Virus record (IMG/VR): IMGVR_UViG_3300029914_000004
DNA length: 64,000 nt
Source of the DNA: a virus
Lineage: Duplodnaviria > Heunggongvirae > Uroviricota > Caudoviricetes
Direction: 5' to 3' (one strand)
Shown here: positions 5,392 to 64,000 of the stretch, piece after piece
How the letters are laid out: each line of letters starts with the position of its first letter
Numbering within the stretch: the stretch's first letter is position 1
Translations under genes and position numbers: made by a program
Notes under the pieces: model-generated
The model's database searches: none
Told to the model about the DNA's origin: nothing
What the model saw: the letters and a program-made list of their open reading frames with translations, nothing else

Positions 5392-6483
5392 GTGAATAAT
5401 ATGAATGAAACTACTTGCTCTCTCGAAAATTACCTTATTCTTCCTGATAATACAATGGATGAGAGAATCGCCAATGCTAAAAAACAGCTTGGCGATTCTC
5501 TCATTATTTTGGGTCATCACTATCAAAGGGATGAAGTCATAAGATTTGCTGATGCAATTGGAGATAGCTACAAACTATCTAAAATTGCTGCCGAAACAAA
5601 CGCAAAATATATTGTATTTTGCGGCGTTCATTTTATGGCAGAAAGTGCTGATATTTTAAGTAAACCTGAGCAGATAGTAATTTTGCCTGATTTAAATGCT
5701 GGTTGTTCCATGGCTGATATGGCGGATATTTCTCAAGTTGAACATTGCTGGGAAGTTCTTGAACAAATGGGAATAGCAAATCATATAATGCCTATTACAT
5801 ATATGAACAGTTCTGCGGCAATTAAAGCATTCTGCGGAGAGCATGAAGGATTGGTTTGTACTTCTTCCAATGCTGATAAAGCATTTGCATATGCTTTTGC
5901 ACATGATAAAAAAATTCTGTTTATTCCTGATCAACATCTTGGAAGAAATACTGGATCAAAAATGGGAATTTCTTTGAATGAAATGACTATTTGGGACCCT
6001 TGGACAATTCAATATGGCAAGAATTTTCTATTCAAAAAAATTATTTTGTGGAAAGGCCATTGTTCAGTTCATCAGAGATTTCTTCCTTCTCACGTTGAAA
6101 CAATTCGTGAGAAGTATCCCAACATGAAAATCATTGTTCATCCTGAATGTAGAATAGAAGTTTGCGAGAAAGCTGACGATATTGGCTCCACTGAAAAATT
6201 AATTTCTTTGATTGAATCTGCTCCTGATGGATCATCTTTTGCAATTGGAACTGAGATACATCTGGTAAATAGGTTAGCTAAAAAATTTCCAAATAAACAT
6301 ATTATTACGTTGGATGACTCTGGTTGTGGATGCCTTTGCACAACAATGTACAGAATCACTCCTCAGCATTTATGCTGGGTATTGGAAAATCTTGTTGATG
6401 GAAAAGTTGTCAATCATATCAAAGTTAAAGACAGCGTTAAACATTGGGCAAACATTGCTCTAAATAGAATGTTGGAGGTTTAA
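5392..6483 (+). CDS. nadA: quinolinate synthase (NadA)
   Basis: 363 aa; blocks VHFMAESADILS, YMNSSAAIKA, CTSSNA, IPDQHLGRN, GHCSVHQRF, IIVHPEC and IGSTEKLI match NadA throughout. Confidence 0.8.
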   Translation: MNNMNETTCSLENYLILPDNTMDERIANAKKQLGDSLIILGHHYQRDEVIRFADAIGDSYKLSKIAAETNAKYIVFCGVHFMAESADILSKPEQIVILPDLNAGCSMADMADISQVEHCWEVLEQMGIANHIMPITYMNSSAAIKAFCGEHEGLVCTSSNADKAFAYAFAHDKKILFIPDQHLGRNTGSKMGISLNEMTIWDPWTIQYGKNFLFKKIILWKGHCSVHQRFLPSHVETIREKYPNMKIIVHPECRIEVCEKADDIGSTEKLISLIESAPDGSSFAIGTEIHLVNRLAKKFPNKHIITLDDSGCGCLCTTMYRITPQHLCWVLENLVDGKVVNHIKVKDSVKHWANIALNRMLEV

Positions 6484-20049: not shown

Positions 20050-21015
20050 ATGGCACACACTCGAAAATTACTTTTGATCCAAGGAGAATCAGGATCTGGA
20101 AAATCAACCTTTGCTAAAAAATATGTCGAGGATCATCCCAATTATATTAGAATAAATCGTGATGATTTACGCATCGAATTGGCTGATGAACCAAATGCCC
20201 CAAAAGGCGGAAAATTTGAACGCTTTGTTTCTTTGGTTGAAAAAAGCAGAGTTGATAAAGCTTTAAAGGAAAATAAATCAGTAATATTAGATAATACTCA
20301 TTTAAATTCAAACACTGTCGATGGATGGCGTAATTTCGCTCGTCATAAAGCAGAATTTGATATTTATCGAATGCAAACTCCAATGGAAGAGTGTATTTTG
20401 CGTGATTCAAAAAGAATTGGCAAATCACATGTGGGAACGGCTGTAATTCATCGTCAATTTCTTATGTCTGGTAGATTGCCCATTGATCTTTCAAAGAAAA
20501 TAGTGTTGTCTGATGTGGATGGAACTTTGATGGATTGCCATGGAATCCGCAGCCCATATGATGAAAGCAAAGTGTTGTTAGATAAACCTTTTCAAAATAT
20601 CATCAATGAAGTTAATAAATATCATGATGCTGGAAATACTGTTATTATTGTTTCTGGTCGGCATAGCACTTGCGGAGATGATACCATCACTTCACTTACT
20701 AAACATGGTGTAAAATTTGATTTTATTTTTATGCGCCACATGTGGGATAATAATCACGATTATATCGTGAAACAACAAATTTTGGACCAATTACTTAATG
20801 TTGTCCCAAAAGAGCAAATTATTAAAATATGGGATGACCGTCCACAAGTTGTAAAACAAGTGTGGCTCAAAAATAATTTACCAATTCAACCAGTTTTTAA
20901 AAATCAATTAATTCCTATCAATGAATGGACTACTGTTCATGATAAGAATTGCAAATTCATTGCAACCAATAGATTTGGTCGATGCCCTGATTGTGAAGCA
21001 TTGGAGGATTTTTAA
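20050..21015 (+). CDS. polynucleotide 5'-kinase/3'-phosphatase (T4 Pnk/PseT-like)
   Basis: N-terminal P-loop LLIQGESGSGKST and C-terminal HAD phosphatase motif VLSDVDGTL, in the same domain order as T4 Pnk. Confidence 0.65.
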   Translation: MAHTRKLLLIQGESGSGKSTFAKKYVEDHPNYIRINRDDLRIELADEPNAPKGGKFERFVSLVEKSRVDKALKENKSVILDNTHLNSNTVDGWRNFARHKAEFDIYRMQTPMEECILRDSKRIGKSHVGTAVIHRQFLMSGRLPIDLSKKIVLSDVDGTLMDCHGIRSPYDESKVLLDKPFQNIINEVNKYHDAGNTVIIVSGRHSTCGDDTITSLTKHGVKFDFIFMRHMWDNNHDYIVKQQILDQLLNVVPKEQIIKIWDDRPQVVKQVWLKNNLPIQPVFKNQLIPINEWTTVHDKNCKFIATNRFGRCPDCEALEDF

Positions 21016-21321
21016 ATGGAAGGAAACGCAGTGGTTCCTTGCCCAAATTGCAAATTTATGCTTAATGTAGAAGAAGATAAACTTGCAAAATCATATGGGA
21101 ACATTCTAATGGATGATTTTTTGGCTAAAGAAGCAAAAATCAATGTAGACCGTCGTGGGGTACTGGATAGTTCTTTGTCATTAACCTCAGAAGTGAATTT
21201 TAATTATGATAAATTTAAAATAATCATTACTGCTCATTGCGGCAGATGTAAATATGACTACCGCTTCAATCACGAAGAAAATATGAAAGATTTGATCTTA
21301 ATACAAAAATTGGCGAAATAA
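21016..21321 (+). CDS. zinc-ribbon protein
   Basis: CPNC...CGRC Cys pairs. Confidence 0.4.
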   Translation: MEGNAVVPCPNCKFMLNVEEDKLAKSYGNILMDDFLAKEAKINVDRRGVLDSSLSLTSEVNFNYDKFKIIITAHCGRCKYDYRFNHEENMKDLILIQKLAK

Positions 21322-21322
21322 A

Positions 21323-21580
21323 ATGGCAAAATTTGTTGTAGATTTATGGCTAGATGGATATGATTCTGAAGAAGAAATGATCGTGGCTTGTAAAGAATTC
21401 ATATATGAATCACTTAATATGACTGCTAGTTCTGTAAAAGTTGCAGATTTTTATCAATATACAAAAACAGCATGTCCTGCTTGTCTTGCCAATGATCATT
21501 CCCAGCATGATACTAGTGTCTATAAATTAGGTTGTCAAGATCAAACTACAGAAAAACCATGCGAATGCATGGTAGAATAA
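21323..21580 (+). CDS. hypothetical Cys-containing protein
   Basis: 85-aa ORF; ATGA overlap. Confidence 0.4.
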   Translation: MAKFVVDLWLDGYDSEEEMIVACKEFIYESLNMTASSVKVADFYQYTKTACPACLANDHSQHDTSVYKLGCQDQTTEKPCECMVE

Positions 21581-21592
21581 GAGGATATTATT

Positions 21593-22693
21593 ATGGCTTT
21601 GTGGCGAACTTTTGCTTGTAAAATTCAATTGCTTCCACATCCAAACGCAGATAGAATGGAAATTGCTCGTTGCAATTTCAATCAACTTGTGGTTGCTAAA
21701 GGAAATTATCAAGACGGTGATGTTATTGTCTTCGCACCAGAACGAGCAATTTTGCCTGATTCTTTGAAAGGCGAATATGTAAATTCTGAAACTGGAATCA
21801 GTTATCTTACTGGATCAGAGAAAAATAGAGTCAAAGCTATCAAACTGAGAGGAGAACCATCAGACGGAATTTCCCTTCCTATTGAATGGGTATTGGAGCA
21901 AGTTCCTGAATGGAATTCTGTCAAAGATATTCCTTTGGATATTGACATTTCAGAAAAACTTGGTATTTCAAAGTATGAACCTCCAATTCCTTATAATATG
22001 AGCGGAATTGTAAAATCTGTCGATACTTTAAATTTTGCACCGAAAGTCGCTCATCACGATGTTGAACAATTTCGTTTGTTCGCTGATGAATTTGATAAAA
22101 ATGAAGCTGTAATTTGCAGCGAAAAGTTGCACGGAACGCAAATCAATGTCTTTTTCTCTAAAACTGGAGAAATTGGAGTGTCTAGCAAAGGATTCAATTC
22201 CAGAGATTTGATCATTGAACAGGATGCAAAGAATCTCTACTGGCAAGCACTGGAAAATTCTGGTCTAATTAATTTTGTTAAATGCGAAATTCTTGAGTCA
22301 AATGCTCCAGAACTATACAAATCAGATGTTCAATTGGTTGGAGAAGTAATTCCTTGCCAAAAGAATTTTACATATGGTCAAACCAAACCAATTCTGAAGC
22401 TATTTCGTTTTATTGTAAATGGCAAGGAATATTCAGTTCTTGATCTTAACAGAATTTATGGAAAACAGTTCTTGAAAGATCATTGGGTGCCAATTCTTTA
22501 TCACGGAAAATTTGATCCTGAAATATTTGCAAAACTATCTTCTGGAAATGAAACTGTCTCTGGAAAAGGTTTGCACATCAAAGAAGGCATTGTTATTGCT
22601 CCAGAAATTCCGCGAGTAGCGCGAAGAGGATTTCTCCTTCTTTTAAAATGGCTAAATAAGAATTATAAACCAACAGATGAGGATTTTTCTTAA
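21593..22693 (+). CDS. RNA ligase with an N-terminal OB-like domain plus a nucleotidyltransferase domain (Rnl5/DraRnl-NgrRnl-like)
   Basis: Motif I KxHG (SEKLHGTQ) around residue 180, preceded by a roughly 110-aa domain, as in the Deinococcus and Naegleria ligases. Confidence 0.5.
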   Translation: MALWRTFACKIQLLPHPNADRMEIARCNFNQLVVAKGNYQDGDVIVFAPERAILPDSLKGEYVNSETGISYLTGSEKNRVKAIKLRGEPSDGISLPIEWVLEQVPEWNSVKDIPLDIDISEKLGISKYEPPIPYNMSGIVKSVDTLNFAPKVAHHDVEQFRLFADEFDKNEAVICSEKLHGTQINVFFSKTGEIGVSSKGFNSRDLIIEQDAKNLYWQALENSGLINFVKCEILESNAPELYKSDVQLVGEVIPCQKNFTYGQTKPILKLFRFIVNGKEYSVLDLNRIYGKQFLKDHWVPILYHGKFDPEIFAKLSSGNETVSGKGLHIKEGIVIAPEIPRVARRGFLLLLKWLNKNYKPTDEDFS

Positions 22694-23055
22694 TGTTTAA
22701 TATTTGTGAAGACGATTTGACCAATTCAAATTTATTAACTTTAAATTATACTAGAAGTGGAAAAATTGCATGTGCAATTCGTCAACTGTTTAACTGGTAT
22801 TGCCATATTCAAAATAAGGAATATAATCTTCCTTATAATGATGGGTATATCAACTATATACATGCTGATAAAAATTGGATTAAAGTTGATGGACTTATTA
22901 GTGGAAATGAATATCGATGGAATATTCCGATCCCATATAGAAATGAAATGAATATCCCTACTAAATGGTTATTTCAGGAAAACTGGAAAGAATTAATTGA
23001 ACAACAAATTAAACGAGATAAAAATGAATATCTCATAAAAAAATTAAGTGAATAA
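22693..23055 (+). CDS. EKLSE-family small protein
   Basis: C-terminus ENWKELIEQQIKRDKNEYLIKKLSE. Confidence 0.45.
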   Translation: MFNICEDDLTNSNLLTLNYTRSGKIACAIRQLFNWYCHIQNKEYNLPYNDGYINYIHADKNWIKVDGLISGNEYRWNIPIPYRNEMNIPTKWLFQENWKELIEQQIKRDKNEYLIKKLSE

Positions 23056-23279
23056 TGGAGAGTTTTATGATTTTATTTTTAGTAATTTTATATCTAATTT
23101 CTACAATTGAAGCCACGTATTTTTTCAGTAAATCTTGGTTATTCTATAACGATTTATATTTGGGAAATTTGATTTTTTGTTTTATACTGGGACTTTTACC
23201 TTGTGCTTTCGTTCCAGCGTTTATATTATATTTAATAACATATTCCAAGTTGCCAGCCCTTTTAATAAAGAAGAGATAA
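23055..23279 (+). CDS. small membrane protein
   Basis: 74 aa with two hydrophobic helices. Confidence 0.4.
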   Translation: MESFMILFLVILYLISTIEATYFFSKSWLFYNDLYLGNLIFCFILGLLPCAFVPAFILYLITYSKLPALLIKKR

Positions 23280-23602
23280 TGATTCCAGACGAATTAACGA
23301 GAGCATTACAATTGGTGGGGAAAGATCATCAATTAATTAATAACGAAGTTTCTATAATTTATAAAAAATTTCAAGAACTCAAATTGAAAATTTTGGGATA
23401 TTCATGGAACAATAAATGTGTGTCTATTTTTGATGTAATTGAATTAGATTATAATAATAAATTATTTTTCATTAATAAAAAACGTGGATGTTATTTATCA
23501 TTTCCAATTCGTTGGCTCAGCGATCCAAATTGGGAAAAAGAAGCAATAGAAGGGATCAAAATTGAGAGAGATTATGCTCTAATTGACAAACTACAATCAT
23601 AA
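23279..23602 (+). CDS. EKLSE-family small protein (variant C-terminus IDKLQS)
   Basis: ATG after AAGAGATA; NWEKEAIEGIKIERDYALIDKLQS; in the frame of ORF 23177..23602. Confidence 0.4.
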   Translation: MIPDELTRALQLVGKDHQLINNEVSIIYKKFQELKLKILGYSWNNKCVSIFDVIELDYNNKLFFINKKRGCYLSFPIRWLSDPNWEKEAIEGIKIERDYALIDKLQS

Positions 23603-23665
23603 GAAAACAAATGATTTATTTTGACTTTTAGGTTTATATTTGCTGTTCTAGATTAGAGGATCAAA

Positions 23666-24763
23666 ATGATTGTTTTAAATAAACTGCTGAATGTCGAGAC
23701 TTTGGAGCAATTAATTGCTGATGGATATATTTCTCGAAAATTTCACTCCAAATTTCCTTTGGCAATTTTGAACTATTCTCATAAAGCCAACTTTGATCCA
23801 AACTTGATATGGGGCAATGAGTTAAATTTCTGCCGAGGATTGATTTACAATACTGAAACTTTAGAAATTGTTAGTCGTCCATTTTCCAAATTCTGGAACA
23901 TTAATGATACTCGCCATCCTGAAACTATGGAAGAGAATCTTCCCAACGATATTCCTCTAATCACATCAAAGATGGATGGGAGCATGGGAGTATTTTATCA
24001 CTGGGATGGTGTAAATTATATTGCAACTCGTGGAAGTTTTGAGTCTGACCAATCAAATTGGGCCAATGAATGGCTTCATAAAAATTATCCTAATTTGATT
24101 CTTCCAAAAAATTATACTCTGCTATCAGAAATCCTTTTCAAATCTAATAGGATAGTCGTAGAATATGATTTTGAAGGACTTGTAATTTTGGGAGCAGTTC
24201 ATAAAGAAACTGGCCAGGAATTATCACGTCAAAATCTTGTAGATTATTGCGATATTACTAATCTAAACATCGTTCAAGACCACACCAAGTCTTTATCTGA
24301 GTGTGTTTCTGAAGACTTACCCAATTTTGAGGGATATGTCTTAACTTATTCAAATGGGTTAAAAGTTAAAATCAAAGAATTGACTTATTGCACCCTCCAT
24401 AAGATTATTACAGGTCTCAATCCTAAAGCAATTTGGGAATTGAAGCGTGATGGAAAAAATGAAACTATTGATAGTTGGTTGAATGATAAAATAATGCCGA
24501 TTGAATTCAAGAATTGGCTAAACAAGTGGGATGATCAATTATCCAATGATTTCTACAAAATATTGATGACGGCTGAATCTATTTTTAATAAGCAACCAAA
24601 AACTAATTCTCGTAAGGAAATTGCAACATATTTCTTACAAGGAGAAAACAAAGAGTATTCATCTATTTTATTCGGATTATTGGATGGCAAAGATGTTTCT
24701 CAAACAATTTGGAGAATGATTGAGCCAAAATTCAATGACGTATTTAGAGAAGATGGAGAGTAA
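23666..24763 (+). CDS. RNA ligase 1-like (T4 RnlA family)
   Basis: Motif I K-x-D-G (ITSKMDGSMGVF) around residue 100; 365 aa, similar in size to T4 Rnl1. Confidence 0.55.
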   Translation: MIVLNKLLNVETLEQLIADGYISRKFHSKFPLAILNYSHKANFDPNLIWGNELNFCRGLIYNTETLEIVSRPFSKFWNINDTRHPETMEENLPNDIPLITSKMDGSMGVFYHWDGVNYIATRGSFESDQSNWANEWLHKNYPNLILPKNYTLLSEILFKSNRIVVEYDFEGLVILGAVHKETGQELSRQNLVDYCDITNLNIVQDHTKSLSECVSEDLPNFEGYVLTYSNGLKVKIKELTYCTLHKIITGLNPKAIWELKRDGKNETIDSWLNDKIMPIEFKNWLNKWDDQLSNDFYKILMTAESIFNKQPKTNSRKEIATYFLQGENKEYSSILFGLLDGKDVSQTIWRMIEPKFNDVFREDGE

Positions 24764-32963: not shown

Positions 32964-32994
32964 CATATTCAAAACAAAGCACTTATTTTCTTAT

Positions 32995-33023
32995 TGACAA
33001 ATCACCTAAAGTTTAGTATACTT
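32995..33023 (+). promoter_or_regulatory. family promoter with a conventional leader (TTGACA-N17-TATACT)
   Basis: Followed by a 22-nt leader with a GGAG RBS. Confidence 0.55.
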
Positions 33024-33041
33024 ATTTTAGTGGAGAAAACT

Positions 33042-34367
33042 ATGACCAAGATGAATCAAAATGCGCTGGCAGTAATGGAGACTCTTGAAAATGCAGGGTA
33101 CGATGCCTTTTTATGCGGGGGCGCGGTCAGAGATTTGCTTCTTGGCTTGACTCCACACGATTGGGATGTAACTACTTCTGCCCCTGCTGAAGTCGTGGAT
33201 TCTCTCTTTCCCAATACAAAGATGGTGGGAGAAAATTTTGGCGTTTCTCTTGTTGAATACAATGGAGAAACATTTGAAGTTGCGCGATTCCGTCGTGATG
33301 GAGATTATAGCGATAATCGCCGCCCAGATTTTGTGGACTTCACTTTGTCTGCTGAAGAAGATGTTGCTAGAAGAGATTTTACCATGAATGCTTTGCTCAT
33401 GGATCGAAACGGAAATGTTTACGATTTTGTTGGTGGACAGACTGATTTGCAGAATGGTTTGCTCCGGGCTGTTGGAAATCCTGAAACTCGTTTCACTGAA
33501 GATGCATTGCGTTTACTTCGAGCTGTCCGTTTCGCAGCGCGATTTAATCTTCGATTTGATCGGGAAACTCATGAAGCAATAGAAAAGAGGGCTTTTTCTG
33601 TTGAAACTCTTCCGCCTGATCGTGTTAGCGGAGAACTTGTCAAGATGCTGACTGGTGGCAATGTCAATGTTGCTTTCAAGCTTATGGACAACACTGGATT
33701 GCTTCAGCATGTTTTGCCTGAAGTCAATGCAATGCGTGGTGTGGATCAAAATAGCAAATTTCATCCAGAAGGAGATGTTTTTCAGCATACTCTGCTCATG
33801 CTGTCTAAGCTTCCTGCGAATTGCAGCGTCACTCTTGCCTTGTCTGTCCTTCTTCATGATGTGGCAAAACCAACAACTGCTGTTCGTAACGTAAAGACTG
33901 GTGAAAATCAGTTTTTTGGCCACGAAACAGTCGGTGCTGAAATGGCTGCAAAGATGCTTCGCAATCTTCGATTTTCAAATGAAGTTGTAGATGCTGTTAG
34001 CAGCCTTGTTTCTCAGCACATGAAGTTTTTCAACGTAACGAAGATGAATGATTCCAAGTTGAAGAGATTCGTTCGTCAGGAAAATTTCAGCGAATTGCTT
34101 GAACTGAATCGTCTTGATAGTCTTTGCAGTAATGGTGATCTCACTGATTTCAATTTTGCTGTTGATTTTCTTGCAAGTGTCACTGAAGAGTCTTTGAATC
34201 CTGTTCGTCTGCTTACTGGAAACGATTTGCAGGCAATGGGGTTGAAGCCTGGCCCGATGTTTAAGACTTTGCTTACTGCACTCGAAAATGCGCAGCTTGA
34301 CGGGCGTGTAACAACTCGTGACGAAGCTGTATTTTTCGTTGAATCTTTGACTGGCGGAGACAGGTAA
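33042..34367 (+). CDS. cca: CCA-adding enzyme (tRNA nucleotidyltransferase, head domain plus HD domain)
   Basis: Pol-beta nucleotidyltransferase motif LCGGAVRDLLLG..DWDV; RRDFTMNAL; C-terminal HD domain LLHDVAKP; about 45% GC. Confidence 0.8.
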   Translation: MTKMNQNALAVMETLENAGYDAFLCGGAVRDLLLGLTPHDWDVTTSAPAEVVDSLFPNTKMVGENFGVSLVEYNGETFEVARFRRDGDYSDNRRPDFVDFTLSAEEDVARRDFTMNALLMDRNGNVYDFVGGQTDLQNGLLRAVGNPETRFTEDALRLLRAVRFAARFNLRFDRETHEAIEKRAFSVETLPPDRVSGELVKMLTGGNVNVAFKLMDNTGLLQHVLPEVNAMRGVDQNSKFHPEGDVFQHTLLMLSKLPANCSVTLALSVLLHDVAKPTTAVRNVKTGENQFFGHETVGAEMAAKMLRNLRFSNEVVDAVSSLVSQHMKFFNVTKMNDSKLKRFVRQENFSELLELNRLDSLCSNGDLTDFNFAVDFLASVTEESLNPVRLLTGNDLQAMGLKPGPMFKTLLTALENAQLDGRVTTRDEAVFFVESLTGGDR

Positions 34368-35133: not shown

Positions 35134-35316
35134 ATGTATATTCCAGAAGAGATGTTTGCAATTCGTTCACACGCTCCAAACCGAAAATTTGAAATTTTTG
35201 GCACAATAGTTTGTTTAACTTCTTCTTCTGAAATAGGTAGTATAATTGAAACTTTTAAATTTTCATCTAATCAAGAAGCTAAAGATGCAGTACTTTTGGT
35301 GAAATTATCAACATGA
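35134..35316 (+). CDS. small protein with the C-terminal EAKD..LVKLS motif (family variant)
   Basis: FKFSSNQEAKDAVLLVKLST. Confidence 0.4.
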   Translation: MYIPEEMFAIRSHAPNRKFEIFGTIVCLTSSSEIGSIIETFKFSSNQEAKDAVLLVKLST

Positions 35317-35531
35317 AAATTGATCTACAAGACGATTGTGATTTTCACAATATTGATTTTCATATCGGTAACGCTTGGAGAAGAAAGTTTTCTGTTGACT
35401 TATATAGAAGTTTTTGGTGTGTTAAAGTAACACATATTTCACGAACATTCCTTGCAACTAATTCGTATGTAAAATGTTCTTCAAAACAAGAAGCAACATT
35501 ATTGGCATTAGAATGCTCTTTATCAGAATAG
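35313..35531 (+). CDS. small hypothetical protein (family variant)
   Basis: VKCSSKQEATLLALECSLSE tail. Confidence 0.35.
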   Translation: MKIDLQDDCDFHNIDFHIGNAWRRKFSVDLYRSFWCVKVTHISRTFLATNSYVKCSSKQEATLLALECSLSE

Positions 35532-35540
35532 AAAGGTAAT

Positions 35541-35735
35541 ATGGAGAAGAAAGTAACGAAAGATTTCTCATCAACAAAAGAAGCATTGGATTTTATCACT
35601 GCTCTGGAAAACCAAAAAATTAATGGTTTACTAAATTGTTTCTTGAACAAGGACAAAACATATAATTGGCTTGTAACATATATCCCAAAAACAACAGTAA
35701 AGGAAAAGAAAAATGAAGATCGAAAGATTGCTTGA
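35541..35735 (+). CDS. small protein carrying the family motif at its N-terminus
   Basis: FSSTKEALDFITALENQK. Confidence 0.35.
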   Translation: MEKKVTKDFSSTKEALDFITALENQKINGLLNCFLNKDKTYNWLVTYIPKTTVKEKKNEDRKIA

Positions 35736-36681
35736 AGTTCCAACTGGCCATATTTGTATTGCTCAAGGTAGTGAAGGGAAAATTGAATTTTTATCTCTCG
35801 GAGATTATGGGCAAGATGTAAATTTGAATCAACACAAAGCTGTTGCTCACCAAGAAATTATGCCTTTAACAGAAAAATGGGTAATTACAGTGTCAACGCA
35901 ATTTGGGTGCAGTATGGGATGTAGTTTTTGCGATTGCCCCAAAGTTGGACCTGGAAAGAATGCGTCTTTTTACGATCTCACTGGTCAAATTTTGTGTGCG
36001 CTAAAACTTCATCCAGAAATTACTGGCACAAAGAGATTGAATGTTCACTTCGCCAGAATGGGAGAACCTACTTGGAATCCTAACGTCCTTGATTGTGGAA
36101 AGTGGCTCCATACTCACATGAACGACACTTTTCATATTCATCCAGTAGTGTCAACAATGATGCCGCGTAGGAATATCTGGTTGAAGACATTCATCCACAA
36201 CTGGATGAGGATGAAGAACCGTTTGTACAACGGAAATGCAGGACTTCAACTGTCGATCAACTCAACGAGTAAGAGTGAGCGCGACAAGATGTTTCATAAC
36301 AACGCTTGCACGTTTGAAGAGATCGCAAGGATTATGGAAGGAATTATTCCTGTAGGAAGAAAGATCACTCTCAATTTCGCTGTTGCCGGTTACGAGATTG
36401 ATCCAACCGTGCTATTGAACTACTTCGATCCATCGCTTTACGTGTGCAAGCTAACTCCGATGCATAAGACGCACACTGCTCTTGATAACGGGATTCAAAC
36501 GGAAGGTGATTACACTGACTTCCATCCGTACATCCACCACGAGGATGCTTTGAAGAAGGCAGGGTATGATGTGCTCACTTTCATCGCTTCCGTAGAAGAG
36601 GATTTAGGTAGGATCACTTGTGGAAATGCCATTTTAAGTGGAACGCTTCCGCTGGTTGATTATAAAGAGACTTATTTATGA
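35713..36681 (+). CDS. radical SAM RNA methyltransferase-like (RlmN/Cfr family-like)
   Basis: STQFGCSMGCSFCDC (CX3CX2C in an RlmN-like context), ARMGEPTWN (MGEP-type SAM motif), later conserved Cys ITCGN; GC-richer than the background. Confidence 0.5.
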   Translation: MKIERLLEVPTGHICIAQGSEGKIEFLSLGDYGQDVNLNQHKAVAHQEIMPLTEKWVITVSTQFGCSMGCSFCDCPKVGPGKNASFYDLTGQILCALKLHPEITGTKRLNVHFARMGEPTWNPNVLDCGKWLHTHMNDTFHIHPVVSTMMPRRNIWLKTFIHNWMRMKNRLYNGNAGLQLSINSTSKSERDKMFHNNACTFEEIARIMEGIIPVGRKITLNFAVAGYEIDPTVLLNYFDPSLYVCKLTPMHKTHTALDNGIQTEGDYTDFHPYIHHEDALKKAGYDVLTFIASVEEDLGRITCGNAILSGTLPLVDYKETYL

Positions 36682-37310
36682 GTAACTTTGATAAACTGAA
36701 GAAACAATTAGATAAAGCAGAGGAAAATGCTTCTATTAAACGTGAAGAATTTTATGGTTTAATCACAGAAGTATTGTCTGTATTTAATTTGAATAATGAT
36801 CATTACGACGATGTATGGTCAAATGAAACTCATGTAATTGTGAACTATAGCTGGAGGGCTGCTGGATGTAACTGCTCAGATTCTATTACTCTCCCAAAGT
36901 CAATTTTTGATGCTGCTGATCCTGTTGCCGTCGCAAAAATTTATAAAAATGATCTTGATAATAGCAAGAAAAAGTCTGAACGTTCAATAAAATTAGAAGA
37001 ATTTAATGCTTTAAAGAAAGAACTTGGTGTAAAAATAATGAAAGCAACTCATCCAATACAACCATTAGTTAGCGACAAAGTTGGAACAACCAGATTTAAA
37101 GAAAATGCTATTGTTAGCTATCTTATTGACATTGCAACACAAAAAGGCATAGCAGACATGAATTCTCTGGCTATTATGAATTTCTCAAATGAAGATCGTG
37201 AGCAATTTGCTCAACTGATTGGATATTCATTGGACGGATTTGGTGAATTATCATATGTAAGTGATGAGACATATGATTTGGCTGCAAAGCAAAAAGTTTT
37301 TAAGGAATAA
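36678..37310 (+). CDS. hypothetical protein
   Basis: 210-aa ORF. Confidence 0.5.
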   Translation: MSNFDKLKKQLDKAEENASIKREEFYGLITEVLSVFNLNNDHYDDVWSNETHVIVNYSWRAAGCNCSDSITLPKSIFDAADPVAVAKIYKNDLDNSKKKSERSIKLEEFNALKKELGVKIMKATHPIQPLVSDKVGTTRFKENAIVSYLIDIATQKGIADMNSLAIMNFSNEDREQFAQLIGYSLDGFGELSYVSDETYDLAAKQKVFKE

Positions 37311-37329
37311 ATACAAGTGTTAAATAACG

Positions 37330-37700
37330 CTCGTGAAAGGACAGTATAAAATCAACGGACAACACACCGGTTCAACTCCGGTCAGGTCCACCAAATTTAT
37401 GATTCAATGTTTTATTTGGGCCTGTCATGGTATCGATTGACGTGTGGTTGGACTACTGACGAGCCGACTGGTGTGGCCATCGTAAATGGACACATAAACA
37501 ATAATTGCTACCTCTGGTATCAATGGCAGTGCAAAGATTTTCACGTATTCTGTGAATCTCCGCAACACTGAGCTAGTAAACGCCTAATAAGCTTTACTCC
37601 GAGGAGTTGTTCCGTCCTTGTAAAAGAAACGGAACTATAAAATTTCCTTTAACAACTCAGTAGATCACTGCATATAGGACAATTTTATTTTGCATCTAGA
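37330..37700 (+). ncRNA. ssrA: candidate circularly permuted (two-piece) tmRNA-like RNA
   Basis: T-arm plus 3' acceptor plus CCA (ACCGGTTCAACTCCGGT-CAGGTCC-A-CCA; GGTTCAACTCC is identical to the E. coli tmRNA T-arm) with no 5' acceptor upstream; perfectly complementary 5' acceptor GGGCCTG 14 nt downstream, followed by ATCGATTGACG (compare tmRNA GGATTCGACG); 420-nt ORF-free, GC-richer, hairpin-rich region; possible tag frame ending AAC GCC TAA TAA. Confidence 0.4.
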
Positions 37701-37741
37701 AAATAATGTAGATATTTCATTCTTATAGATAAGTTATCATC

Positions 37742-37924
37742 ATGAAAAAATTAATATATAAAATTCGTTTTGATCTTGGTTTCCTTTATCCATATGTTGT
37801 ATATAACTTTTTAGAAGGAACCACTATGGTTGATGACTTTCCTGAGCATGTGGAACATATAGAATTTTTTAAAACTGAGCAAGAAGCCAAAGATTTTATT
37901 CTAATAGAAAAGTTGGCAGCATGA
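37742..37924 (+). CDS. small-protein array gene 1 (C-terminus EQEAKDFILIEKLAA)
   Basis: Conserved roughly 45-nt 3' block; ATGA overlap with the next gene. Confidence 0.55.
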   Translation: MKKLIYKIRFDLGFLYPYVVYNFLEGTTMVDDFPEHVEHIEFFKTEQEAKDFILIEKLAA

Positions 37925-38097
37925 AAATAATATATACAATCGTCCCTCCATTTGAAGAAGAAATGAAATGGATGGTTATGAAAAGATGGATATCATCACA
38001 GGATGCATGTGTAGATTATAAAATACCAAGATTTTACAGATTTGAATCTGAGCAAGAAGCTGAAAATTTCATTTTATTAGAAAAGTTAGCATCATGA
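37921..38097 (+). CDS. small-protein array gene 2 (C-terminus SEQEAENFILLEKLAS)
   Basis: 58 aa; ATGA-coupled; below the ORF-track cutoff. Confidence 0.5.
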   Translation: MKIIYTIVPPFEEEMKWMVMKRWISSQDACVDYKIPRFYRFESEQEAENFILLEKLAS

Positions 38098-38285
38098 AAT
38101 ACTCATATCGTATAGATCATATTAAATATAGAACAATCTTTCAATGGTCAGTTAGAAAATATTCAAATTATTCTCATCCAAACAATAACAATTCGTGGGC
38201 GTGGAATTTATTATCAGAAAGTTTTTATTTTGAAACTGAGCAAGAAGCCAAAGATTTTGTTCTAATAGAGAAATTATCATCATGA
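38094..38285 (+). CDS. small-protein array gene 3 (C-terminus TEQEAKDFVLIEKLSS)
   Basis: ATGA-coupled. Confidence 0.55.
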   Translation: MKYSYRIDHIKYRTIFQWSVRKYSNYSHPNNNNSWAWNLLSESFYFETEQEAKDFVLIEKLSS

Positions 38286-38455
38286 AAATAACATATGAGC
38301 TACTTGAATTAGATAATGGATGGGGAGTAGCTGCGCGGCAGCAAAAAACTCCGCAAGATGCATTTCTTCGTCAAGAGGCAAGAACAAATATGTTTTGGTT
38401 TTCAAATAGAAAAGAAGCAGAAGATTTCATTTTAATAGAAAAGTTGGCAGAATGA
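38282..38455 (+). CDS. small-protein array gene 4 (C-terminus NRKEAEDFILIEKLAE)
   Basis: 57 aa; ATGA-coupled. Confidence 0.5.
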   Translation: MKITYELLELDNGWGVAARQQKTPQDAFLRQEARTNMFWFSNRKEAEDFILIEKLAE

Positions 38456-38637
38456 AAAAATATACAATCATCCCTCCACAGGAATACAATGATAAATGGA
38501 TAGTCCGGGAAAGACTATATGTTGGAGATACTGAATGTGTGATTAATACCATTGAACTTAAAATTCCTAAAGTTTATATATTTGATTCTAAGAAAGAAGC
38601 AGAAGATTTCATTTTAATAGAAAAATTATCATCATGA
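38452..38637 (+). CDS. small-protein array gene 5 (C-terminus SKKEAEDFILIEKLSS)
   Basis: ATGA-coupled. Confidence 0.55.
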   Translation: MKKYTIIPPQEYNDKWIVRERLYVGDTECVINTIELKIPKVYIFDSKKEAEDFILIEKLSS

Positions 38638-38774
38638 AACGAAAATATAATCTTTATCATCTTACAAAATGGTATGTAGAAGTATGGGCTGAAAGTTTAT
38701 GCCCTCTTTTATATTCATTTGATTCTAAGAAAGAAGCAGAAGATTTCATTTTAATAGAAAAATTATCATCATGA
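38634..38774 (+). CDS. small-protein array gene 6 (C-terminus SKKEAEDFILIEKLSS)
   Basis: 46 aa; its 3' 45 nt are identical to gene 5. Confidence 0.45.
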   Translation: MKRKYNLYHLTKWYVEVWAESLCPLLYSFDSKKEAEDFILIEKLSS

Positions 38775-38798
38775 AACTAAGAAAGAGGCAGAAAAATT

Positions 38799-39056
38799 AT
38801 GTCAATGAAAATTTTATGCACGCCAACAAAATCAGCGAGTGATTTTGGAGAATATAATCCAATCAGAAAATGGAAAATTGAACCAAAAATTTATGAACCA
38901 GAAAAATTTCTTTACAAAACATGGTTTGAATTAAATAGCGAGGATACTAAAAGAAACTATGGTGTTTCATTCTTACTGGGAACATTATTTACAGCAGAAT
39001 TCACCTCCAAAAAAGAAGCTGAAATTTTTTCAGTAATAGATAAACTCATAAGTTGA
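38799..39056 (+). CDS. small-protein array gene 7 (C-terminus SKKEAEIFSVIDKLIS)
   Basis: 85 aa; overlaps the start of the next gene. Confidence 0.55.
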   Translation: MSMKILCTPTKSASDFGEYNPIRKWKIEPKIYEPEKFLYKTWFELNSEDTKRNYGVSFLLGTLFTAEFTSKKEAEIFSVIDKLIS

Positions 39057-40483
39057 TAAATACTAATATGAGATTCAATGAACTATTAACGGAATACAAT
39101 TCAAGTCCATCAAATTTGATAAATTTAGCATCTCAAATAGATGCTAGGGTTGGAATTGAATTTGAAATGATAGTTCCAGGAATTTTGAAGAAACTTGTAA
39201 AAGAACGCGATAGTGATGCTGATGTTTATTGTACATCAATTGATCAAATTGTAGATTTCTTTGATCATGATCAAATAAATTCGCCTCATGATTTGCGATA
39301 TTTACGAACTAGCCTTGAAACAAATTTTAGAGAATATCTTGAGAATAAAGCTGACAAAAACTGGGATAAAGAAGAAGATATTGTTCTTCATAAATATGCT
39401 GAAGAACAAACTGGAGAAGACGAAGAATGCGAGGAGTTATATAACGATCTTCTTCGTGGAAAAAGCAGAGAGTTTTTTAATATTAAAGAAGATTGGATTC
39501 AAGAGTGGATTCTAGATAATAAATATTCTCTGGAATCTGATTGGTTGGACGATGCTGGCTATGTAACTATGGAAGAAGTAAACAGAGAACATGATATTGA
39601 CTGGCCATACTTTCTTGAAGTTAATTCAGGAGGAGATTTGGATTTAGATGATTTGGCTGATGAATTTGAATATGTAATTCAAAATAAAGTATCAGTCAAT
39701 AATGAATATCATAATCAAACCAAAAGATTGGATAGTTGGTATCTAGAGCCTGATGAAAGTATTATTCCCAGCGGGAATGATTCAACTGGCTTGGAATTTG
39801 TATCTCCTCCAATGCCATTTTTAGAAATGGTAGTTTCTATTAACAAAATTATTTCATGGGCAACGAGCAATAACTATTATACTAATAAATCTACTGGACT
39901 GCATGTTAACGTAAGTATAAAAAATGGTAAATTGCTCAACATAGATTATGTCAAATTAGTTCTATTGCTTGGTGATAATTATATTCTAGATAAATTTGGC
40001 AGAGGAGCAAATAGCTACTGTAGACCAGCATTGGGAAAGATTAATGCTGCGATTAAGCTTCATCCAGAAATGATTAGAAATTATTTAATGCAAATGAAAC
40101 AACAATTAAATAATTTTTCTATGAAACTTATAACAACTACAGACAAGTACACCAGCATCAATTTAAAAAGCGGTTATGTTGAATTTAGAAGTCCAGGCGG
40201 AAATTGGTTAAAAGAAGATATTACGGTGCTTCAATCAACCATTGCCAGATTTATTGTTGCATTAGATGCTGCATGTGATCCCACTAAATATCAAAAAGAA
40301 TACGCAACAAAATTATATAAATTAATTCAAGGATCTACACCTACTGATGAAAACTCTGATACTATTTCATATTTTTCTCAGTACGCTGCTGGAAAATTAA
40401 GCAAAGAAGAATTAGTATCAATCATAAAACAAATACAATCTAATAGAAATTATACCAAATATAAACCTACAATAGAAAGTTGA
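39053..40483 (+). CDS. hypothetical acidic protein
   Basis: 476-aa ORF, D/E-rich. Confidence 0.55.
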   Translation: MINTNMRFNELLTEYNSSPSNLINLASQIDARVGIEFEMIVPGILKKLVKERDSDADVYCTSIDQIVDFFDHDQINSPHDLRYLRTSLETNFREYLENKADKNWDKEEDIVLHKYAEEQTGEDEECEELYNDLLRGKSREFFNIKEDWIQEWILDNKYSLESDWLDDAGYVTMEEVNREHDIDWPYFLEVNSGGDLDLDDLADEFEYVIQNKVSVNNEYHNQTKRLDSWYLEPDESIIPSGNDSTGLEFVSPPMPFLEMVVSINKIISWATSNNYYTNKSTGLHVNVSIKNGKLLNIDYVKLVLLLGDNYILDKFGRGANSYCRPALGKINAAIKLHPEMIRNYLMQMKQQLNNFSMKLITTTDKYTSINLKSGYVEFRSPGGNWLKEDITVLQSTIARFIVALDAACDPTKYQKEYATKLYKLIQGSTPTDENSDTISYFSQYAAGKLSKEELVSIIKQIQSNRNYTKYKPTIES

Positions 40484-61657: not shown

Positions 61658-61849
61658 TTATTGCATTAATAAGTATTCAAGGTCTGCTTGAATACCTTCC
61701 CATGCATCTTTCCACTCCCAATATGGACTGTATCCAACTCCGAATTTATAAGAGTCATCAGCCAATCCAATAACTGATACTACTCCAGGTTTTATTATAG
61801 TGCATTTGGCGCTGGGATATACTGCTAGAACTTTTTCTCGGTAATTCAT
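61658..61849 (-). CDS. EKLSE-family-like small protein (..WKDAWEGIQADLEYLLMQ)
   Basis: Conserved core KVLAVYPSAK similar to 47038..47671. Confidence 0.4.
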   Translation of the reverse strand: MNYREKVLAVYPSAKCTIIKPGVVSVIGLADDSYKFGVGYSPYWEWKDAWEGIQADLEYLLMQ

Positions 61850-61851
61850 AG

Positions 61852-62067
61852 TTAGAAACGATAAACTATTCTTGCCTTCTCAAGAGAATATGGAGACAAT
61901 TCTAACTGAACATTATCTCCTGGTTCAATTCTAATATTATTTTTTCGTAATCGACCACCAAGATAAGCAAGGACAATCTGCCCTCCTGGAATTTCAACTT
62001 CCCAAATTGTATTTGGTAATGCTTTTACTACTTTTCCTTTAATACTAACTTGATCTGCTTGTGCCAT
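61852..62067 (-). CDS. infA: translation initiation factor IF-1
   Basis: 71 aa; near-collinear with E. coli InfA (GKVVKALPNTIWEVEIPGGQIVLAYLGGRLRKNNIRIEPGDNVQLELSPYSLEKARIVYR compared with [60 protein letters not shown]). Confidence 0.85.
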   Translation of the reverse strand: MAQADQVSIKGKVVKALPNTIWEVEIPGGQIVLAYLGGRLRKNNIRIEPGDNVQLELSPYSLEKARIVYRF

Positions 62068-62083
62068 ATTCTCCTTTCTTATT

Positions 62084-62302
62084 TTACTTATTTAGTTTAT
62101 TTATTAATTGATTATTTACAACTTTTTTTGCCCAAATCCAAGCTGTTTTCTCATTTACAAAACTAACCGCTAAAATATTTCTACAATTATAAATCTCATA
62201 TCTAAGTGATACATTTTTATTTTTTACAATTCTCATTTTGGCTTCTGGGATTACAGACAAAACAAATTGTTTGTCTATTGAATCGAAAACTTCTTTTTTC
62301 AT
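62084..62302 (-). CDS. EKLSE-family-like small protein (..INKLNK)
   Basis: 72-aa ORF. Confidence 0.4.
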   Translation of the reverse strand: MKKEVFDSIDKQFVLSVIPEAKMRIVKNKNVSLRYEIYNCRNILAVSFVNEKTAWIWAKKVVNNQLINKLNK

Positions 62303-62411
62303 GGTTCAAATTTCTCCTAAAAATTTTCTACATTTCAAAAGACCAGCTCCAAAGTATATACGTCTCTTGCAAAGTACTCCTAAATATATTGTTTTACAAA
62401 CTGTTCGCCGG

Positions 62412-62560
62412 TCATGATAACAATTTTATAACTACTTTCGCTTCTGTCATTGAATTAAAAATACCAACTAATGTGTCAGATCGATTCCAAGACGATTCAT
62501 AAACTTTAACTTTTAACCACAAAAATCCACAACGATAATAATTATATTTTCGAGTCATTG
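62412..62560 (-). CDS. small protein (MTRKYNYY...; C-terminus TEAKVVIKLLS)
   Basis: Internal Met chosen to avoid overlap with 62597..62848; in the frame of ORF 62412..62654. Confidence 0.3.
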
Positions 62561-62596
62561 TGTATCTAAATAATTCTGCATCGTGTGTTGTTTTAA

Positions 62597-62848
62597 TTAT
62601 GATTCCAACTTTCTCATCAACTCTTCTTCGATGTGTTGTCTCGACCACATCCATGCATAATACTCAGCTTCAATTCCAGAATTATCCCACTTGGTTTTAT
62701 TCAAAATTTCTTGCACGTCATCATTTCCAGTTGCGTAAATAGCACCATCACAAAATTCTGCGTTTGGATAAATCGATTGCACGAATTGCTTATGATTTTC
62801 CATTGCTGGAATCATCCAAGTTTTCATAAATGATTTATCCAAACGCAT
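62597..62848 (-). CDS. EKLSE-family small protein (..HIEEELMRKLES)
   Basis: 83-aa ORF. Confidence 0.45.
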   Translation of the reverse strand: MRLDKSFMKTWMIPAMENHKQFVQSIYPNAEFCDGAIYATGNDDVQEILNKTKWDNSGIEAEYYAWMWSRQHIEEELMRKLES

Positions 62849-62850
62849 AG

Positions 62851-64000
62851 TTATTTTACCGACCTAAGCAAAATACTATCTTTGTTTAAGCATTCTTTCA
62901 AACGAGTTGCCACCGCACGAATATCATTGAACCACTTGATAACGCCTGGCTTTCCATAATTATTGAATTGTTTCAGTTGCTCTGCTGGCTTACGCAAAGT
63001 TTTTTGAACACTTTTCACTGTATCGAGATTAAGAATTCGCGTTCCTTTTACATCAAGAGTTGAATTGGACAATGCAACATAATGTCCCAACTTCTTTGTG
63101 CGAGTATTATATGTCCAAATTTCAGAACTCTTCAAAATCTGAGTTGGATCAAAACTTTCCAACTTCAACCCAGCGAAAGTCTTAGTAAACTTCAACTTAC
63201 CAACAACTTTAGCAGGAGCAATAATCTTCTTTTTTCGTGCTTTGCGTGTACTTTTCTTGAGTTGCCCAAAGCTATTAAAATCATTGATAGCTTGTTCCCA
63301 CCATGCGATAGCAGCTTTTATTTCTCGCTTTCCCAAATGAGAATACGCTTCAGAAATTTGTTCATCTTTTCCAGTTTGAGCCAATTGATATTCGCTCAAG
63401 TAACGAGTTGCATAATCAATCAAGTCTTTCATTCGATTGCTGGGAGCAGATGTTTCTGGTTTTGCAAGAATCGCCATTACTGGGCGTGAAGAAATTGGTG
63501 TTCGATAATCAGCAACAATAAACTGATCAAATGCAGCATCGATCTCTCCCTTTACCACTTTCAATTTTGCTGAAATGTATTCTTGAATGTTTGGCTTTGT
63601 ATTTTTTGCGTCAGAAGATTCCACTGATACTTTTTGATTGTCTAAGCATTCACGCAGCGCCTTGACAATTCGCCTGCGCTCTGCAAAACGCAAAACTAAT
63701 CCCATTCTCGCCATGCGAATCAAACAAGCTGATGTATGCGCGATTGGCAAAGTGCTATTTTTAATCCCCACAATTAGATCAGGAAAATGACCGCTTGCGC
63801 TGAGAGCAGACAATGCTAAATCATTGATATTCTTATCTTCTTGCAAAGAATTTGAATACCAATTAAATGCAATTAACATATGATTTTCATAATCATTTTT
63901 GCTCCACAACTTTTGCTCTTCAACAGAAGGATAAAGATGTTCCTCTTCGCCAATAAACTTGGCGCCGTCTGCTTTGAACTTGAGAGTCTGTGTGGTTTTT
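62851..64000 (-). CDS. hypothetical protein, 5'-partial (ORF continues beyond the window end)
   Basis: The reading frame stays open upstream of the listed TTG/Met to position 64000. Confidence 0.5.
   Translation of the reverse strand, partial: KTTQTLKFKADGAKFIGEEEHLYPSVEEQKLWSKNDYENHMLIAFNWYSNSLQEDKNINDLALSALSASGHFPDLIVGIKNSTLPIAHTSACLIRMARMGLVLRFAERRRIVKALRECLDNQKVSVESSDAKNTKPNIQEYISAKLKVVKGEIDAAFDQFIVADYRTPISSRPVMAILAKPETSAPSNRMKDLIDYATRYLSEYQLAQTGKDEQISEAYSHLGKREIKAAIAWWEQAINDFNSFGQLKKSTRKARKKKIIAPAKVVGKLKFTKTFAGLKLESFDPTQILKSSEIWTYNTRTKKLGHYVALSNSTLDVKGTRILNLDTVKSVQKTLRKPAEQLKQFNNYGKPGVIKWFNDIRAVATRLKECLNKDSILLRSVK

Follow-up and report, generated by a model that had tools for sequence, protein, structure and literature searches.

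Positions 37742-39056 of a 64,000-nucleotide (nt) stretch of DNA from a virus of the Caudoviricetes (IMG/VR record IMGVR_UViG_3300029914_000004; the whole stretch is referred to below as the window) carry an array of seven consecutive plus-strand open reading frames (ORFs), which encode proteins of 60, 58, 63, 57, 61, 46 and 85 amino acids (aa). The window derives from a large AT-rich (∼32% GC) T4-like phage found in peat and bog metagenomes, and its T4-like context includes a polynucleotide kinase, two RNA ligases and a clamp loader. An earlier note, made from the sequence alone, had described seven small ORFs of 46-85 aa in a row, which was confirmed. ORF1 (37742-37924) has its ortholog at L008:767-952 on a related contig. 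ORF2 (37921-38097) is a paralog of ORF5 (38452-38637) over its full length, and its ortholog is the protein P0006 of contig L011. ORF3 (38094-38285) matched the hidden Markov model (HMM) of the family with E = 2.9e-21, and ORF4 (38282-38455) showed weak similarity to P0011 of L008 (z = 5.5) and to L019:5001-5198 (z = 7.7). ORF6 (38634-38774), the shortest member, has orthologs in L008 (P0009) and L019 (5195-5335), and ORF7 (38799-39056), the most divergent member, has an ortholog in L012 (P0010).

Stop and start codons overlap as ATGA at the five junctions that chain ORF1 to ORF6, so that each gene is frame-shifted by -1 relative to the preceding gene. This overlap had been proposed for the entire array, but ORF7 is not overlapped; a 24-nt spacer separates it from ORF6, and an AAGAGG Shine-Dalgarno sequence of its own lies 8-9 nt 5' of the ATG. 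A Shine-Dalgarno core accompanies 45 of the 66 long genes in the window and is absent from ORF1-6. Given this absence and the ATGA overlaps, ORF1-6 are most likely translated by termination-reinitiation as one polycistronic unit, and ORF7 would initiate independently. No terminator-like sites were found in the array, and the number of promoter-like sites was not above chance (17 compared with 11.1 ± 3.6 expected), with no consistent placement in the repeats described below. An Rfam scan gave no family matches inside the array, and the inverted repeats at the locus were short and weak only.

The same ending, F-x-[ST]-x-x-E-A-x-x-F-[IV]-L-[IL]-E-K-L-x-x, is found on all seven proteins, and its F, E, A, F, K and L columns are invariant. 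The common C-terminal motif reported earlier is therefore present in every copy, although ORF7 fits it only loosely (EAEIFSVIDKLIS), and the final two residues vary across the family (AA, AS, SS, AE, IS, SQ, SR, SI, SL, SN and AT). A 32-nt degenerate consensus of the tail, with at most one mismatch allowed, matched six sites, all of them within the array, and none in 100 dinucleotide shuffles. A repeat search likewise returned an eight-copy family with copies of 39-69 nt at a spacing of 137-282 nt. The array is real, and its repeat is non-random and far above chance. The DNA of the tails had been described as nearly identical between copies, which holds for ORF5 and ORF6, where a perfect 61-nt repeat occurs at 38580-38640 (+; the ORF5 tail, its stop codon and ATGAAAC) and again at 38717-38777 (+; the ORF6 tail). 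The flanks of this tract diverge abruptly, the ORF5 and ORF6 bodies are unrelated, and the ATGAAAC copied with the second repeat gives rise to a spurious short ORF starting at 38771. The description does not extend to the other pairs, which are 50-83% identical: the remaining ORF1-6 tail pairs share 67-83% of their nucleotides, with many synonymous differences, and pairs involving ORF7 share 50-55%.

The N-terminal halves had been called unrelated, and in most within-window pairs no similarity was detectable (z < 2.6). The exception is ORF2 and ORF5, the N-terminal halves of which are clearly homologous (z = 11.5; 71% nt identity across 58 nt; dN/dS, the ratio of nonsynonymous to synonymous substitution rates, 0.78), and a weak MK-x-x-Y-x-I ... 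W-x-V pattern is common to most copies. A decayed eighth copy, a pseudogene relic, was located directly 5' of ORF1 (∼37650-37741, +) by the repeat search and by alignment to L008. Its repeat copy (37688-37756) is 65-67% identical to the live tails and contains in-frame stops. The relic aligns to an intact 52-aa gene at L008:612-770; the window copy is without an ATG and has an ∼80-nt internal deletion. It nevertheless keeps tail-like sequence and the TTATCATCATG junction, which now precedes the ORF1 start.

Weaker paralogs probably occur elsewhere in the window, to judge from their similarity to the family. The gene at 35134-35316 (+; 60 aa, ending FKFSSNQEAKDAVLLVKLST) is a candidate distant paralog that was matched in the first HMM pass (E = 4.8e-05); it belongs to a second cluster of small genes, located upstream of a gene for a CxxxCxxC protein, and has a counterpart at L019:1574-1774. 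The gene ATGA-coupled to it (35313-35531, +; 72 aa, ending VKCSSKQEATLLALECSLSE) gave a weak HMM match (E = 0.006) and is a tentative assignment. The genes at 21016-21321 and 62412-62654 (−) are possible members. The latter ends GIFNSMTEAKVVIKLLS, and its likely true start is an internal MTRKYNYY..., which resembles the MKRKYNLY...W.V.V of ORF6, so that this gene may encode a distant member of the same superfamily as the array proteins. The iterative HMM search is circular for included members and served only to flag candidates.

Independent gene callers called the same seven ORFs on seven other contigs. Comparison with orthologs gave overall dN/dS values of 0.21-0.44 (0.24 for ORF1 and 0.44 for ORF7), and values of 0.16-0.50 were obtained when the N-terminal body and the tail were taken separately. 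Orthologs are conserved over their full length for ORF1 in L008, ORF2 in L011, ORF6 in L008 and L019, and ORF7 in L012. Similarity of their N-terminal parts was correspondingly evident (z = 8-38), with z values of 22.6 for ORF1, 20.9 for ORF2 and P0006, 21.9 (L008) and 8.1 (L019) for ORF6, and 37.6 for ORF7. Since the ortholog dN/dS values lie between 0.21 and 0.44, ORF1-7 are, on comparative evidence, real genes. Orthologs also retain the same pairing of N terminus and tail. Both halves are under similar purifying selection, and constraint between orthologs is thus not peculiar to the tail.

Searches of Pfam, PHROGs, NCBIfam and PADLOC with the seven window proteins and 17 aligned members of the family gave no match at threshold. 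The nearest was a sub-threshold match of ORF2, one of the 17 members, to Cauli_VI (PF01693; 16.8 bits, with 21 bits required; E 0.008). No PDB sequence was matched by a profile of the family, and tblastn and blastn searches against 50,697 isolate phages revealed no relative at the DNA or protein level. When 1.84 billion cluster representatives were scanned exhaustively with the HMM, 15 proteins were returned at E < 1e-3, 14 of them tiny proteins of the phage lineage. The other one, the repeat protein P0015, has only a generic F-x-T-K-E-E-A motif in common with the family. A second, word-indexed homolog search with a wider alignment added only P0013 and P0014, and a scan of viral-contig and metagenome-contig collections with the degenerate tail pattern gave 0 matches. 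By these searches, the family is previously undescribed and restricted to a narrow phage lineage.

The AlphaFold2 model of ORF5, the main member modelled, reached a predicted local distance difference test (pLDDT) score of 78.8 and contains strands at residues 3-7, 16-21 and 41-44 followed by a helix at residues 47-60. The tail is its most confident part (block means of pLDDT 92-95), and the loop at residues 22-40 is poorly defined. The model of ORF1 (pLDDT 63) has the same layout, with strands at residues 3-8 and 19-24 and a helix at residues 46-59. Each protein is accordingly predicted to be a soluble single domain in which three β strands pack on one C-terminal amphipathic helix. Model and motif together suggest that the tail comprises the third strand, an S/T-x-x-E capping box and the sole helix of this small domain. 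Foldseek searches of PDB and BFVD returned nothing below E = 0.1 and twilight matches only. The earlier note had proposed a constant C-terminal module joined to variable N-terminal modules. Because the tail is predicted as the third strand and the only helix of one domain, of which it forms the structural core, it does not appear to be a separable or independent constant module. Prediction of the tail as an ordinary structural helix is, moreover, the outcome that the note had named beforehand as counting against its cassette interpretation.

The same phage was recovered as seven distinct contigs from several samples. They match the window at 100% identity, without a single-nucleotide polymorphism, and keep its gene order. 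Sixteen ORF6-carrying contigs were examined for within-population variants, and none, either of sequence or of arrangement, was found among contigs carrying array proteins. Related phages with an unchanged set of seven genes were the other outcome that the note had named as refuting its interpretation, and the identical contigs of this strain agree with it. More distant relatives, however, differ from the window in both the set and the order of genes, whereas the junctions of adjacent family genes are always ATGA overlaps. In L008 the order is a new 52-aa gene, an ORF1-like gene, P0011, an ORF6-like gene, a new 67-aa gene and a 93-aa-type gene. In L011 an ORF2-like gene is followed directly by the 93-aa type, and the sequence 5' of the ORF7-like gene in L012 is unrelated. 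L019 is syntenic with the window across the CCA-adding enzyme, the CxxxCxxC gene, a tmRNA-like (transfer-messenger RNA-like) sequence and RNase T. Its family genes encode proteins of 52, 65 and 46 aa (the last ORF6-like), with a further member of 58 aa standing apart, and genes of another small-protein family are interspersed among them. Contig L020 is homologous to window 61859-63124 (−), where no family member is present at the homologous position. In L020 that position is occupied by the family member P0018, which is ATGA-coupled to both of its neighbours; these are two copies of a different tiny gene, of the 62412-62654 type (790-1351 in L020). Other searches defined the reach of the family: loci anchored on the CxxxCxxC gene (80 loci, 47-100% identity) contained no ORF1-7 family members; the sole match, to the distant 35134 paralog, came from L021, a contig identical to the window, and the other 79 loci gave none. 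The IMG/VR relatives of the neighbouring amidoligase gene (L013-L018; 35-37% identity) likewise contained no family members, and a search anchored on an upstream 210-aa protein returned no loci.

Several observations bear on recombination between tails. Besides the perfect 61-nt tract shared by ORF5 and ORF6, the body of ORF6 is ∼90% identical in nucleotide sequence to that of its L008 ortholog and its tail ∼75% (dS 0.55 for the body compared with 1.46 for the tail), a discordance that points to replacement of the tail in one lineage. Two non-adjacent and otherwise dissimilar genes of L008 have tails that are 93% identical, compared with 61-72% for other pairs. The suggestion of built-in homology for recombination is borne out by these three cases. 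The similarity of relatives to the window starts and stops at tails, although these relatives are diverged and their contigs short. Five contigs that match the window also end in or next to tails, at 38234 (L005), 38245 (L006), 38450 (L002), 38571 (L007) and 38777 (L003), and the end of L003 is the exact last base of the 61-nt repeat. These ends probably reflect breakage of the assembly graph at repeats, the alternative being an ORF6-deletion variant in the population. The term cassette system thus survives in part as an evolutionary description, given the varied gene content of L008, L011, L019 and L020, but not as the name of an active or programmed system, because the same-phage contigs are identical and unchanged, N termini and tails keep their pairing, and both halves are similarly selected.

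Taken together, the array is probably (at a rough probability of 0.7) a lineage-specific tandem multigene family in a hyperplastic accessory region, shaped by birth and death and by recombination between tails. The kind of evolution is ordinary phage genome plasticity; the family itself is new. Birth and death would comprise tandem duplication, divergence and decay of array genes, and is proposed because of the relic copy, the ORF2/ORF5 duplicate pair and the differing gene sets in L008, L011, L019 and L020. Divergence would have carried the first two strands and the long loop almost beyond recognition. Recombination or gene conversion between the 60-70-nt repeats, each a tail plus its junction, would add, delete and homogenise whole genes. 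Because each tail ends in an overlapping stop/start, whole genes could be gained or lost without breaking frames or coupling. Tail recombination would therefore swap or delete whole genes, and new combinations of N and C termini would not be created. The copies are old, with dS values of about 0.5 or more and bodies that are mostly unalignable. Several points weigh against this interpretation. Between orthologs, dN in the tail is not below that in the body; the conservation of tails among paralogs could reflect protein constraint as much as gene conversion, and the nucleotide sequence may in part be conserved for initiation at the next gene downstream. The ORF5 model was built on a 14-sequence alignment, with residues 22-40 at low confidence. 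The related loci are short contigs from few samples, so that the comparison of gene order is fragmentary and breakpoints are imprecise.

Directly 5' of the array lies a permuted (two-piece) tmRNA (37297-37678, +; Rfam hit 37329-37534, RF04321, 73 bits against a gathering score of 47), for which ARAGORN gave the tag peptide ...SVNLRNTELVNA. The tmRNA is conserved in L008 (269-648; tag ...DLRKMEIAA), and L019 contains a tmRNA-like sequence. Tunturi_5, a 309-kb phage of Tunturiibacter (Acidobacteriota), has an intergenic stretch, without annotation, that matches the core of the window tmRNA (37457-37508) at 89% identity. On the other side, ORF7 is followed by an Amidoligase_2 (GS-like) gene (39053-40483), and an amidoligase gene is likewise next downstream of the ORF7 ortholog P0010 in L012. 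In L019 only a C-terminal remnant of ∼53 aa is left of this gene (6238-6399), the N-terminal part having been replaced by other small genes. No reverse transcriptase or recombinase was found among the annotated flanking genes, to which the annotation was confined. The CxxxCxxC protein (CSMGCSFC; 35713-36681, +; 322 aa) is radical-SAM-like in appearance, with no Pfam match. Many metagenome contigs encode versions of it at 72-85% identity, high-GC phages among them, and its neighbourhood in L028 (a 216-kb contig) is unrelated. Because such close copies sit in unrelated high-GC phage neighbourhoods, the gene appears to be a horizontally shared auxiliary gene and is therefore no synteny anchor.

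Other genes of the window include those for a CCA-adding enzyme, an RNase T-like exonuclease, QueD and four to five tRNAs. An RNA-repair and tRNA-maintenance module (20050-24763 and 32994-34367, +) consists of the polynucleotide kinase, an RNA ligase (phrog_968), an RnlA-type RNA ligase (phrog_562) and the CCA-adding enzyme with an HD domain. In the tRNA cluster (338-1684, +), ARAGORN called three tRNA-Ser (GCT, CGA and AGA) and an unusually long, 92-nt tRNA-Cys, and Rfam confirmed only the last two calls at gathering score. Between ∼48000 and 50000, GC and AT skew change sign and gene orientation passes from plus to minus; this may be the boundary of a transcription or replication module. The gene for an IF-1 homolog (61852-62067, −; 71 aa; TIGR00008 infA, 78.5 bits against a cut-off of 61.15) is embedded in another tiny-gene array. 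A second family of tiny proteins is found in this region (61658-61849, 62084-62302 and 62597-62848, −), in L019 (4638-4841 and 5800-6063) and in L020 (276-793 and 1348-1817), and in these two contigs it is interleaved with the EKL-tail family of the array. Its members share an N-terminal (F)V(K/L)S(I/V)YP(D/N/S/E)A and have the C termini KLES, KLNK, KLQS and KLER, with no Pfam match. C termini of the form ...KL-x-x recur across several tiny-gene families.

The proteins might, tentatively, be small binding proteins for host take-over or counter-defence, the variable sheet and loop faces of which contact different host or phage macromolecules, a proposal that we regard as somewhat less probable than its negation. 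Such putative binders would have diversified under an arms race. A different account of how the array evolves, compatible with this guess at function, treats the tail and ATGA junction as a recombination linker embedded in coding sequence, a functional analogue of the cassettes with promoter/stem-loop motifs (PeSL) of T4-type phages and of integron cassettes. A single tiny gene would leave its array, perhaps as a mini-circle, and enter at any other tail, those of other arrays included; frame and coupling would be regained automatically, so that every inserted cassette would be expressed. This account, which we consider unlikely, fits the differing sets and orders of genes in relatives, at every junction of which the ATGA is still present, and the occurrence of P0018 in a different small-gene array of L020, flanked by ATGA on both sides and absent from window 61859-63124. 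It also fits the perfect and near-perfect tail pairs on otherwise unrelated bodies and the junction retained by the relic ahead of ORF1, and the homology required for T4-type recombination is less than 50 bp (PMC2839356). Against it, contigs carrying array proteins showed no within-population variants, most tail pairs are 61-83% identical and hence a poor substrate for homologous recombination, and ordinary duplication, deletion and occasional conversion explain the pattern equally well. We know of no circles or recombinase that would serve such a linker.

The neighbouring genes invite two further readings, both less probable than the linker. Small RNA- or ribosome-associated factors that act with the adjacent tmRNA, translation and RNA-repair genes would account for the position of the array directly 3' of the permuted tmRNA in the window and in L008, with tmRNA-like sequence at the same position of L019, and for a neighbourhood that holds a CCA-adding enzyme, an RNase T-like exonuclease, QueD, a polynucleotide kinase, RNA ligases and IF-1. 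There is also a weak likeness in fold layout to two nucleic-acid-binding domains, AP2 and the RNase H1 hybrid-binding domain. Most of the proteins are, however, neutral to acidic (pI 4.6-8) with tails of net negative charge, which argues against a typical nucleic-acid binder; the Cauli_VI match is sub-threshold and confined to one member of 17, family members are found at other loci as well, and the synteny may merely reflect a common hyperplastic region. On balance such a role is distinctly improbable. Still more so, and hardly to be expected, is a function of the C terminus as an address or tag, whether as a Pup-like amidoligase substrate, a degron mimic or a packaging signal like the T4 capsid-targeting sequence (CTS). 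The Amidoligase_2 gene directly after the array, the superficially ssrA-like KLAA and KLAS ends (ORF1 ends in LAA) next to a tmRNA, and the common terminal motif on variable bodies of T-even internal proteins (PMC9391042) speak for it. Against it, the last two residues are not conserved, L019 has kept the family but no more than a 53-aa remnant of the amidoligase, and the model, at its highest pLDDT, buries the tail as the core helix of the domain. A Pup- or ubiquitin-like tag was rejected, as neither invariant C-terminal residues nor a conserved linkage to the ligase was found, and an ssrA-like degron was rejected because the last residues vary and the tail is predicted to be buried. That the repeats are a non-coding regulatory or structural element and the ORFs spurious would agree with the regular spacing of the repeats (137-188 nt), the AT-rich region and the one non-coding copy upstream of ORF1. 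Yet frames are kept in all copies and all relatives, dN/dS is 0.2-0.44 with conserved ortholog bodies, and the array has no terminator-like sites, promoter-like sites at chance level and no Rfam match; the coding signatures effectively refute this reading.

A tandem family that evolves by birth and death and tail recombination thus remains the preferred interpretation, and at present the array represents ordinary hyperplastic-region biology of an uncultured phage lineage. It adds an undescribed family of tiny phage proteins without a Pfam, PHROG or structural relative, and it offers a clean example of the birth, homogenisation and loss of small accessory genes in large T4-like phages. If the proteins are anti-defence or take-over factors, the array would constitute a compact panel of related binders with differing specificities. 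If the tails are active cassette linkers, they would extend the PeSL model of modular shuffling and provide a protein-coding counterpart of PeSL and integron cassettes, with a mobile pool of tiny host-interaction proteins.

Among known systems, the UPF0339/DUF1508 (YegP-like) proteins resemble the array proteins in size (∼50-60 aa) and in their strand-strand-strand-helix order. They differ in showing no sequence or HMM similarity, PF07411 giving no match for the seven window proteins or the 17 members even at E ≤ 10, and the Foldseek searches returned nothing significant. Diversity-generating retroelements, shufflons and silent cassettes are recognized by variants in one population, of which the seven identical contigs contain none. 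Genomic accordions (poxvirus K3L; T4 dmd-tifA amplification, PMC9391042) share with the array a change in copy number by short homology and the diversification of accessory genes, and short-homology amplification and deletion do occur in T4 (PMC9391042). Accordions are recent, near-identical amplifications under acute selection, whereas the array copies are old. The T-even internal proteins, some of which have anti-defence roles, are likewise a small accessory family with a short conserved terminal segment and very divergent bodies (PMC9391042). Their segment is an N-terminal, prohead-protease-cleaved CTS that acts as a packaging signal, whereas that of the array is C-terminal and predicted to be structural core; the N termini of the array proteins have only MK-x-x-Y in common, and there is no sequence similarity between the two sets. 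Repoila et al. are said to have described, in 1994, recombination within the shared leader of the T-even internal proteins.

The closest parallel is with the PeSL cassettes (Arbiol et al. 2010; Comeau et al. 2014). These belong to T4-type phages, where ORFans in hyperplastic regions are flanked by copies of a 50-70-nt promoter/stem-loop motif; recombination between the copies leads to insertion and deletion (PMC2839356, PMC4122927), homology of less than 50 bp being sufficient for T4 recombination (PMC2839356). Both systems are arrays of tiny genes in a T4-like genome with each gene bounded by a repeat of ∼50-70 nt, relatives of both differ by insertion, deletion or replacement of whole genes, and recombination between repeats is the proposed driver. 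The array carries eight repeat copies of 39-69 nt, but its repeat lies within coding sequence, and no σ70 early promoter or stem-loop terminator was found in the motif by the search for promoter-like and terminator-like sites. PeSL genes are unrelated ORFans and transcriptionally insulated from one another, whereas the array genes are mutual paralogs and translationally coupled. Most distinctively, the PeSL repeat is an intergenic promoter and stem-loop, whereas that of the array consists of the last ∼19 codons and the overlapping stop/start, so that the homology for recombination lies inside coding sequence and is combined with stop/start coupling.

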